Positions 30,890 to 58,758 are shown, counted from the first letter of the stretch. The stretch is DNA of 64,000 nt from Saccostrea echinata (GCF_033153115.1 NW_026889835.1:2046001-2110000), one strand, 5' to 3'. Notes: generated by a model not told the origin, from the letters alone. Translations and numbers: made by a program.

Positions 30890-31042
30890 TTAATAAGCTT
30901 CAGTGGCTGTATCTGTTTTTGCTCCTATTCGAAGCAGTCTGGTATGCTCCCGTTCATGCTCCTTTAAGATGTGTTTGTCTTCTTTCAACATCTGTCGATG
31001 CTTCTGCAACTTTTCATAACTCTCTTCCCTCTGTGCATGCAC
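30890..31042 (-). CDS. Coiled-coil gene coding exon 13 (terminal)
   Basis: TTTTCTACAG| VHAQREESYEKLQKHRQMLKEDK..TEAY then TAA. Confidence 0.85.
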   Translation of the reverse strand: MHAQREESYEKLQKHRQMLKEDKHILKEHEREHTRLLRIGAKTDTATEAY

Positions 31043-34000
31043 CTGTAGAAAAAAAATTATGGTAAATGCCTAAATCTATGAAGCAAACATTTCTTAAAAA
31101 GAAAATTTTGAGCCAGTGAAGCCACAAATCTTGAGAGATTCTGATGGTAATTAGCAAGAAGGGGGCATAAATTACAGATCAGCTTATATAAATCATAAAA
31201 AGAGGCAACAGTTTCAGTTTAAATCTGGAAAACTTTCGGCAAAATGTGGTAGGCATACAAACACATATCAATGAAATTTGAATAAATAACTTGCACTGAA
31301 GACAAGTGAGGAGAGCTTGATTGTAGCATTTGGGCTGAAGTTAATTTGTTAAATATTTCTGTTAATTTCTTGTTTTCTGGGAAACTGTTTCCAACATCCA
31401 AGAACAACTCATTATTCATCAGGGCTAAAGGATGATGTCTTTTTAGATCTGACGCTTTGATGACTTATAAATAGAAAAACAATATCAATCACTGATAATC
31501 TCAAAAAATACTAAGAATTAAATAGATTTTTCAAATTAATTTTATGAATGATTAAACTTTTTTCCCTCTGATGTTATTGTAGAATAGAAAAAAATTCACT
31601 AAACTCATGACAATTCCTACTTGTTTTTTATATAAAATAAAAAGGTTTCCTTAAAAAGTGTGAAAAGAATTAAAAAAATAAATGAATAAATGTATAAAAA
31701 TTAAAATTAAATTACATTAAAAAAAACAAAACAAAACAAAAAACCAATATCAATCACTGATATCTCAGAATGTAATTCAGAATTAGATAGAAAGAAAGTA
31801 TTCATTTTAAATAACATAAAAATGATGCAGTTTATTTACTGCAAAAAACCATGGACCAAAATCAATTTTAGAGGAAATGCTGTCAAAATCAGTTTAAAAA
31901 TGTGCTGGAAAGGCCACAAAAACGGTGTTAATAATTTCTTACAAAACCAAAGTTAATGTGTTCATTTTTATAGACTCAATTTCTTTTCAATTTAAAAAGG
32001 ATTTCCCTTTCAATTTCTCACTGAGTTAAAACTTTAATACCTGACTTTGAAGTTTTGATTTTTCTTTGAAATTGTTAAAGTGGTACTTAACCTTTTTAAT
32101 CTTTCATAAACATGATATAATCTCAAACTAAATACTTACTACCTACAGAAAAGCAGCCTAAATGAAGGATATTGAAATTATGCTAATATATTGATGTAAA
32201 ATCTGAATGGATTGAAAAATTTATGGGATTTGTATGGCATTTTGTGTACAACGAATTGAGACTTTTATTATAAGAACCTACATCGCTGACAGACACAATC
32301 TAGAGCATCGAAACCATCAAAGTCCCAGAGAACAAATTGTTCAGAGGCATAATGTCACTGATACAATACTTTGATTATGTTGTGGACAATCTAAATATCC
32401 TGTCATGATTTTCAAAGAATACTACATCAGTTTAAAATAAATCAGAGAGGATTTTTAAGGTTACTAAAAGTAAAAAGTTATTCAAGACCATTATGCCCCC
32501 AATACACATATGTACAAAAGTGTGTGTAAATGTTCACTTAACCACAGAAGATAAGTGTTCAATACACATTTGATCTCAAAGTTCCTAAATTTTAAAGCCT
32601 TTTAAAGTAATGGTTAAAAGAGTAAAGCTGTTCAACTTTGGTTGTCCCAGAACACGAATGTCATTAAATCTTTGTTCCTTGAATCAGAAATATGACTGGT
32701 TGAAGTTTAGGCTTGTTGTAAATGCTTACCCTGGTAGATAAGCCATAATTGAGGGGTGTTTCTTGGGTACATGGAATAAGTACACAGTTGTTACTGTGAT
32801 AATTTCAAGTATTTGACCTGTTTTTCTTTAGCTGGAGTGATCTTCTACAACTTGTAGCTGACATAATCTATAAATTACAATACATTATACTGAGTTTATC
32901 ACACTTCAGAACAAAATCTCCCCTTATCATAAATTTACAATATCTAACTTATTACCTACTTCTCCTTGCAGTAAATGAATTAAAGGTTGTAAATTACTTT
33001 AAATGTTTTAAAATAGATTCTCTGATGATAAAGTTAAGCCTTAGGATTTGCAAAAAACCTTTACGCACTGAGTTTTTGGAATTCATGGTTATATTTTAGA
33101 GTATAAATTCTTTTGTGGAATTCAAAAATGATTTATTTGAGACTTAAACATGGGCATAAAAAATGGTCCAATACCTAAATGTATTCATTAAACATTAAAA
33201 TGGCTTTAAAGTTTGTAAATTAATTTTAGAGATTTTTTCATTATTTCAAAAAAATTTTTTAAAGTATGTGCCTTTGTACAATGAATTTATCTTTTTTTCC
33301 TAAAATAATATTGTATTACATCTACATGCTTCACCTTATATAACTAAAATATGGCCACAATTTGAAACAACATACTGTTACAATGTATTTATTTTGGAAC
33401 TCTTTGATGAGTGATGAATTAGCCATGGGATAAATCAGATATCAAGCAATAAATTTCAATGAATGATTTGCTTTGATTTCTGCTAGGGTGTGTAAAATAT
33501 ATATGAATTATCTAAGTGTAAAAGGGAGTAGCCATTATGAAGTTTTATTACTACCTACATGCATATATATTTAGTCAATCTAACTGATATAACTTCAAGC
33601 TGCTTATTGACACAGTTCATTGCAAATACATTTAATATCATAGGTAATGATTTATGAAAATTCTAGATGGAATAAGTTTAAAAAGAAAATAAAACTAGGA
33701 TATTATATTTGAGGTGTTTCAAAACATTTTGAAACAACTTGAAATATTTTTTTCCCTTCATCTTGAAATTACATCTCATAGAACAAATTCAGATATAGGG
33801 AGAAATTTGTACACTCCTATTTTAAATGAACAGTCCATCCCTGATGTTAACCATTACAACTACATCTCACTGATGGTACACAATTATCACTTCCCCTCTA
33901 TCACCCTGAATAGAGGAAGTGATAATAAATCCAGTGTACTTTAAGCCCTGTGATCTCTATTTGGAAATGAGATAATATGCTGAATACACACATCATTAAA

Positions 34001-57351: not shown

Positions 57352-58651
57352 AAAATGGCCTGATGGTGTCTTTGACTATGAAACCTTTGACTGATTTCAC
57401 ATTGAGGGCAACAAAGCCAAAGAAATTTGTATTCACACTATTCTGCTTGCTCACGTGGTCACATTATTTATGTAATACATGTATATGCATACAGTGAGCA
57501 AAGAAAGCATTGCAGAAGGGCTCTTCTATAGACAATGTGAAGGAAGTAGAGGATTCTCAGTAGGCATATGGAATAACAGGCAAAGTTGAGAGAGAGAGAG
57601 AGAGAGAGAGTGAAATTTGATGGGATTTCCATTCTGTTCTCTGAACTTTCTATGCATGTTTGGTACACTTCTCCGCTCCGCTAATGATTACTAGGTATCA
57701 TGTTCCATGTGTTGGTTCACTGCTTATATAAAACAGCATGTGCAAATCATAGGCACTCCCCATTTTAATTGTTAAAAAATATATATACCTACTATACTAT
57801 AAACATGTTTATAGTATAGTAGGTAATTGCATGAATTTTATAAAAACTAATTGTTTTATAACCCATTTTGAAGTTTTTGTCTAACTGTCATTACAAATTA
57901 CACTTCAAATTCAAACTTTTAATGATTGTGAAATCAACATGTTAAAATAAAGTTGTATATATATTTTGTAATAAGTGTCTGATATGTGCTATCTGCTTAA
58001 TGTTTACATCATTATTGATCAATTTTAATTCAAAACTTTGGTGATGGAAATTCCCAACTTTTTCACAGAATTATAAGAAAATCTGCCTGTCTGATACATA
58101 TTGGAAGTTATATTTTGATACGATACATTCTTAAATATTGATACGTATTGATATATCGATATATTTATACAGCCCTAAACTACAAACATGTAAACTAGAA
58201 CTGCAGAACTGCTCTCTGGATCATGTTCTTGCGATGACCAAAGAAAAGTTCACAATAATATAACTCACCTTCCATTAACAGGAATTGCAGGTAGACAGTA
58301 GATAAAATGCTCTTTGTTCAATATTTGCCCATTAATTTTAAGACTTCATTATGGAAATGCAACTAATATTTGACGTCATTTGACGTCACATTCTAGACCT
58401 TCCAAATGAAGGGGTGGATCTAAGTTAAAACTAGATAGGTATCCAGTAATTTATACACAACTGCGCTCGTCCTAACGGTCGCACCGTCAACATATTAAAA
58501 GAACACTCAGTACACCAAATTTATCATCATGAAACCGATCCCCTATGACCAGAATGACGGGCACCTGCCTTGACTTACTTAAAATTATTGCATCAGGATA
58601 TTCTTGCAGGCTTCAAGTACTTATGTACGAAAATGACTGTAAAGACCATAC

Positions 58652-58758
58652 CTGTAATAATGCAGAATCACAACTACAGCAGTACTTCACAGCATAAAGG
58701 GGCAGAGAAAAAATATTTTCATTCGACGATTCGTTAACCAATGTAGGCAGCCATTGTT
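58652..58758 (-). other. Putative non-coding first exon of the coiled-coil gene
   Basis: The ATG-containing exon starts at a splice acceptor (56647), so an upstream exon is needed. Donor CAG|GTATGG at 58651 lies just downstream of a YY1-like AACAATGGCTGC and the X-box. Confidence 0.45.

Follow-up and report, generated by a model that had tools for sequence, protein, structure and literature searches.

An unnamed animal family of long helical proteins, encoded beside CFAP299 in an oyster, as a candidate component of motile cilia

CFAP45, CFAP53 and MNS1, filamentous microtubule inner proteins (MIPs) of the axoneme, are about 500-550 amino acids (aa) long and consist of a short head of low structure and, after it, long charged helices that contain no proline and are briefly interrupted. 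Here we describe a gene of the oyster Saccostrea echinata whose 557-aa product is similar to them in size, is predicted to share this architecture and also has a link to a cilia gene, being placed head-to-head with CFAP299. The gene lies on the minus strand of a 64,000-nt stretch of DNA (GCF_033153115.1 NW_026889835.1:2046001-2110000; the window in what follows, with positions counted from its first letter). Its family differs from CFAP45, CFAP53 and MNS1 in an animal-only range and in signature motifs of its own. According to PMC10973386, core MIPs are pan-eukaryotic and an ELLEn module is carried by CFAP53, CFAP141 and TCHP. CFAP58, CCDC96/CCDC113 and DRC10, coiled coils of the outer axonemal surface, offer a second comparison, being likewise long helical proteins, located at the doublet site that binds CFAP299. 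PMC11779644 locates CFAP299 itself in the axoneme of bovine sperm, next to CCDC96/113, CFAP57 and CFAP58, and PMC10425847 treats it as a cilia gene whose Drosophila mutants have axoneme defects.

A first-pass annotation of the window had proposed a hidden gene of 13 small exons for an unrecognised coiled-coil protein with a motile-cilium or sperm role. Its reading frame was right. A splice-site scan with manual joining gives 13 minus-strand coding exons, from 56625-56480 to 31042-30890, every one bounded by AG/GT; joined in phase they form an open reading frame (ORF) of 1674 nt (557 aa and a single stop), and the product is identical, with 0 mismatches, to RefSeq XP_061168159.1/XP_061168160.1, Saccostrea echinata 'trichohyalin-like isoform X1'. 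The gene is real, and it is not hidden, as RefSeq already annotates it under an automatic name; all 13 exons stand, and a 14th coding exon (6a) had been overlooked. The gene model is thus known, and the family to which it belongs is real, animal, single-copy, unnamed and modestly novel. We propose that the protein serves as a filamentous structural component in the axoneme of motile cilia, like CFAP45, CFAP53 and MNS1 in manner and not in family, and give this reading a probability of roughly 45%. Some ciliary role that is not confined to sperm appears probable from the gene neighbourhood and the distribution of the family.

The neighbourhood is the most direct link to cilia. CFAP299 (C4orf22, PF14713) occupies 59140..62015 on the plus strand, with its ATG at 59140 and six coding exons for about 230-234 aa, which confirms the head-to-head pairing seen at first pass. 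Among 23 metagenome loci encoding a relative, enough upstream genomic DNA for comparison was present in L023 (nearest Mya/Dreissena), L031 (nearest Watersipora) and four contigs of one tunicate-like locus (L017-L020). Both L023 and L031 have CFAP299 exon 1 on the other strand, at a distance from the family ATG of 877 nt (E 7e-16) and 956 nt (E 3e-14), respectively. That the pairing is kept in these two other lophotrochozoan loci makes the ciliary link stronger. The X-box that had been placed between the two genes is plausible and statistically weak. An X-box-like element is present in the shared promoter region at 58759-58772, 368 nt from the CFAP299 ATG, and X-box-like sites occur in the intergenic regions of all three loci (oyster, L023 and L031). 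Of the patterns used, a tight one, fitted post hoc, has 58759-58772 as its sole site in the window (0.37 expected), a strict AT-spacer pattern does not match this site, and a relaxed one finds 1, 2 and 2 sites in the three promoters against 0.47, 0.51 and 0.30 expected, so that the oyster site stands against a chance expectation of 0.47 in its interval.

The link to CFAP299 could instead be passive, a piece of old microsynteny around a cytoskeletal or scaffold protein that has nothing to do with cilia. A BMP3-like gene is next downstream, so old linkage here can include unrelated genes, and the absence of any MIP motif or axoneme match, described below, would suit such a protein. The observed/expected CpG ratio is 0.26 over 28940-58200, a span that matches the inferred transcription unit, compared with 0.85 over 1-28900; this depletion suggests germ-line methylation, which in oysters accompanies broadly expressed genes. 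However, a distance of less than 1 kb between the two ATGs in L023 and L031 is one at which promoters are shared, X-box-like sites lie in between, and the range of the family tracks ciliated epithelia. We consider a non-ciliary scaffold rather unlikely.

That range is wide. Of 7995 candidates that were scored in a profile search, 91 proteins matched at E<=1e-5. The lophotrochozoan matches come from bivalves, gastropods, a chiton, Lingula, nemerteans, annelids and a bryozoan, those from deuterostomes from starfish, a crinoid, hemichordates, amphioxus and tunicates, and those from early-branching animals from corals, an anemone, a jellyfish and Trichoplax. Exon 13, used as a query against 1.84 billion representatives, gave 82 matches, most of them nameless; those looked up (20 shorter ones and others) include the bdelloid Rotaria and Acipenser. 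A follow-up search with 7 matches among 7997 candidates includes RefSeq genes of Acipenser ruthenus (LOC117416247) and Polyodon (LOC121322505), and the earlier suggestion that the family may be absent from vertebrate annotation is not supported. The sturgeon and paddlefish genes (P0207, P0208) are short, encoding 193-238 aa; against the family profile their proteins score E 6e-39 in two pieces, at profile positions 14-116 and 418-555, so that this version keeps the head motif and the last helix without the roughly 300 aa between them. The idea that the two retained ends pack into one fold found no support (AlphaFold2 head pLDDT 50-65, pTM 0.43). In a quick tree of 39 chosen rows the main groups follow animal phylogeny, and the sturgeon branch, only 40% filled, is long and unplaced. 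The family is mostly single-copy; the neogastropods Babylonia and Nucella have two gene copies (P0064, P0109, P0112, P0146). Every animal with a named member, Trichoplax and Rotaria among them, has motile ciliated epithelia. No arthropod or nematode is among the named rows, a weak absence given that the searches depended on words or on single exons.

Distribution also bears on whether the protein could belong to the germ line or to sperm only, co-expressed with CFAP299 in spermatids. CFAP299 is reported as testis-enriched (PMC10425847). The oyster locus has two perfect cyclic-AMP response element (CRE) palindromes at 58371-58388, 10 nt apart and upstream of a strong splice donor at 58268, in a window that holds four such palindromes against 0.33 expected by chance. 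CREs are linked to testis promoters through CREM, so the two could mark such a promoter; however, they are absent from L023 and L031. Bdelloids are not known to have males, and members in a bdelloid rotifer and in Trichoplax make a sperm-only role less likely, as does the lack of a named insect member, since insects have motile sperm. Of the motile-cilium or sperm role first suggested, the ciliary link holds through the CFAP299 pairing, and restriction to sperm seems improbable.

The anatomy of the protein is what points to a filament. It has a mass of 66 kDa and a pI of 9.6, and is charged and basic. Its prolines are at residues 7, 24, 28, 29, 57 and 89 only, so that the Pro/Ser-containing head and long proline-free helix described at first pass are borne out. 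An AlphaFold2 model built from a 19-sequence alignment (mean pLDDT 75.8, pTM 0.34) predicts three long helices at 91-233, 239-397 and 404-555, with no globular domain, as would be looked for in a filamentous MIP. The helices, of 143, 159 and 152 aa, would measure about 21, 24 and 23 nm, or about 69 nm in total if straight, and the flexible head of about 90 aa is mostly of low confidence with two short helices. Within the head, RPGSAPP lies at aa 23-29 and RRRAASV at aa 79-85; the latter was dropped as a functional motif, being conserved in oysters only. We compared 57 sequences, non-redundant at 80% and restricted to proteins of 500-620 aa, with both oyster isoforms counted. In 49 of them, from Trichoplax to tunicates, the part that aligns with aa 114-550 has a length of exactly 437 aa; of the 8 that deviate, several do so through insertions in the gene model at the exon 6 pair. 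The length of the head, by contrast, ranges from 93 to 164 aa. The head motif ER-x-x-GP-x-GFLDS is found in 38 of the 57 and in all three sturgeon and paddlefish proteins, and the DHMW block in 49.

A rod of fixed length is also compatible with a striated fibre, and the protein could be ciliary without being axonemal: a self-associating coiled-coil fibre of the basal body, basal foot, striated rootlet or sperm anchoring fibres. CFAP299 synteny and distribution fit this equally, the animal-only range and the lack of a match among solved axonemes suit an accessory structure, and heptad patches are seen at about aa 91-145, 203-258 and 413-480. The heptad signal is broken up, however; a period of 3.58 exceeds shuffled sequences only in helix 91-233, and hydrophobic a/d occupancy in the best register ranges from 0.28 to 0.67. 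The earlier description as a coiled coil thus holds only in part, and we infer from the sequence that the rod resembles extended helices bound to a partner more than it does an uninterrupted two-stranded coiled coil. Given also that no Pfam match to rootletin-like or other centriolar families was found and that the linked CFAP299 is axonemal (PMC11779644), a basal or rootlet fibre looks somewhat unlikely.

The family proved to be unrecognised, as first stated. The same proteins are labelled 'trichohyalin-like', 'myosin-11-like', 'MNS1-like' or 'LAMA2' in RefSeq and UniRef; these labels disagree between orthologues and reflect an E/K/R/Q-rich composition, with no matching Pfam domain in the members scanned. 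Pfam searches with single exons and with 38 longer proteins (11 + 20 + 7) gave nothing above cut-off, a PDB sequence search with two profiles and the sturgeon protein gave no relevant match, and Foldseek on the AlphaFold2 model gave none at E<=0.001, a test weakened by long helices. The ESM Atlas gave best values of 0.81 and 0.86, which are at lead level only, and literature searches of main texts found no paper on the family. Two further leads, CFAP58_CC on the last exon (E=0.004, 16.6 bits, below cut-off) and a DRC10_N cluster in the ESM Atlas (cosine 0.78), were rejected as below cut-off or at chance level, and were gone on full-length proteins. The protein is not a member of the CFAP45/CFAP53/MNS1 (TPH/ELLEn) group, to which the first-pass annotation had compared it. 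PF13868, the domain of the TPH family (CFAP45, CFAP53, MNS1, TCHP and CFAP210), has no match in the 38 proteins; its model finds 11 matches elsewhere in the oyster genome and none in the window, and the family HMM scores at best 7.9 bits against six-frame translations of the genome's own TPH loci (L006-L016).

Several of our results weigh against an axonemal filament. With motifs defined as in PMC10973386, ELLEn syntax (full or core pattern) occurs in 0 of 106 full-length sequences, and NWE, PYG, GFG and SNYG in 0 of 57; the Mn pattern occurs in 11 of 57, at scattered positions of which at most 4 sequences share one. An animal-only named range differs from the pan-eukaryotic range given there for core MIPs, and no non-animal member was named in searches that depended on words or a single exon, again a weak absence. 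There is no PDB sequence match, though the PDB holds many axoneme models, and no Foldseek match at the threshold above. The expected agreement with motile cilia holds for the named members but not in reverse, since the word-limited searches named no teleost, tetrapod, shark, cephalopod, sea-urchin or flatworm member despite the motile cilia of these animals. In sturgeon about 300 aa of the rod are missing, and full length is accordingly not needed in every animal. No long-range repeat was detected (best profile lag z=2.6, none notable near 27 or 54 aa). X-box enrichment is weak, with P of 0.38, 0.10 and 0.03 on intervals chosen by eye and of 0.18 and 0.14 on whole intergenic regions. Finally, no CFAP299 was found within 9 kb upstream in the tunicate-like locus. 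The family copy in that locus (L017:9067-11581) has two coding exons, the second GC-rich and 1.5 kb long, compared with 13 in the oyster, and from its sequence we read it as a case of heavy intron loss along with loss of the CFAP299 link.

If the axonemal reading is right, the protein would be co-transcribed with CFAP299 in ciliated cells from a shared RFX-type promoter and would lie as a rod along the microtubule doublet. Binding along a periodic lattice would account for a rod that tolerates no insertions. Swapping the two versions of exon 6, described below, would alter a 27-residue patch (about 4 nm) of the rod surface with length unchanged, giving two cell-type versions. Carried to its full extent, the proposal would describe an animal-invented axonemal ruler that dates back to cnidarians and placozoans and was later lost by ecdysozoans and by most vertebrates, with an exon swap that in molluscs serves two axonemes. 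Such a ruler would have been kept where aquatic animals swim or feed by ciliated epithelia and reduced to its two ends in sturgeons; the swapped patch, at about one tubulin monomer, could distinguish sperm from epithelial axonemes, or beating from arresting ones. Taken as a whole this is speculative and unlikely. The known parts of cilia have been catalogued chiefly in algae, ciliates, mammals and a single sea urchin; such lists, like phylogenetic profiling centred on humans, would miss a component found only in aquatic invertebrates and sturgeons. A family with signature motifs is then a candidate for unassigned densities in invertebrate axonemes, and the conserved exon pair offers a direct test of alternative splicing building different cilia in one animal. 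Even if non-ciliary, this is an uncharacterised, strongly conserved animal family under wrong automatic names.

RefSeq isoform X2 differs from the 557-aa X1 only in aa 183-209. X1 uses exon 6b (53727..53806, minus strand), which is backed by RefSeq and RNA contigs, and X2 uses exon 6a (53876..53955, minus strand), which rests on RefSeq isoforms and conservation and was seen in 0 of 4 RNA runs (676 bases covered), a count that is no evidence of absence. The two are mutually exclusive. Both are 80 nt long, 6a sits 69 nt upstream of 6b, and their peptides are identical at 9 of 27 residues; either one alone gives 557 aa, both together give a stop at aa 210 and neither gives a stop at aa 192, as is typical of homologous exons of equal length whose frame is broken by joint use or joint omission. 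Saccostrea cucullata, Babylonia and Biomphalaria have isoform pairs whose sole or main difference is this segment. In Nucella and Biomphalaria, gene models include both versions in tandem with 6a first, and the clam-like locus L023 has two 80-nt exons in the same order. Five cnidarian-like loci have a single 80-nt exon at this position, and in two bryozoan-like loci the 80-nt exon 6 is fused to exon 5. Judging from these sequences, the pair would most simply go back to a single duplication that preceded the divergence of bivalves and gastropods. Steric hindrance alone was dropped as an explanation of the exclusivity because the spacing in L023 is about 840 nt. Mya arenaria has two isoforms (P0015, P0016) that are alike except for their final 50 aa, encoded by alternative last exons.

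The remaining exons are all on the minus strand. Exon 2 (56480..56646) is the first coding exon, with the ATG at 56625 and aa 1-49, and is followed by exon 3 (55873..56065; aa 49-113), which encodes the conserved head motif, exon 4 (55538..55646; aa 114-150), with the most conserved block (DHMWQHKQEERELKR), and exon 5 (54171..54268; aa 150-182), seen in RNA contigs together with its junction to exon 4. Exon 7 (50908..51016) is supported by RefSeq and RNA contigs. RefSeq also supports exons 8 (47793..47890), 9 (46689..46763), 10 (46373..46473), 11 (45994..46121) and 12 (39807..39962). Exon 13 (37384..37611) encodes aa 432-507, and the last coding exon (30890..31042; RefSeq) aa 508-557 and the stop. 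The RNA check of the junctions suggested at first pass succeeded for 3 of the 12 coding junctions. Contigs came from four public runs taken to be RNA, from at most three samples in two studies, none tissue-labelled, and the comparison was confined to 676 bases around exons 5-6. In three of the four runs exons 4, 5, 6b and 7 are joined: the 364-nt gap between exons 5 and 6b is skipped with splice ends, and the loose ends of the contigs, compared with the window, read into exons 4 and 7. The fourth run has a short contig only, whose loose ends are compatible with exon 4 and the start of 6b. The other nine coding junctions are backed by RefSeq and by 557-aa homologues that align without gaps at 90% identity, one of them from transcript-sized Logan contigs. 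Each of two exon queries found one copy in the 923-Mb genome.

At the 5' end a likely non-coding first exon, 1a, spans 58652..58759 (minus strand), with a GT donor at 58651 and an approximate start; its basis is contig X2, which carries 108 nt before exon 2 (by arithmetic, unaligned), and an alternative first exon ending at 58269 fits this contig equally well. The donor at 58268 is possibly that of a second first exon, and RefSeq lists two transcripts for isoform X1. A six-codon upstream ORF is present at the start of exon 1a (58733-58753, minus strand). The 3' untranslated region would by arithmetic be about 1.95 kb (28937..30889, minus strand), reaching the sole AATAAA at 28942, and the length of contig X3 implies a transcript end near 28971.

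Past the 3' end of the gene, 26438-26716 and 27585-27796 hold a short stretch that resembles an ORF, together with small tandem repeats. The next gene downstream, at about 9306-15557 on the minus strand, belongs to the BMP family, with BMP3 as its best PDB match. Human BMP3 also adjoins CFAP299, and BMP3-CFAP299 may be an ancient linkage block that contains the oyster rod-protein gene.

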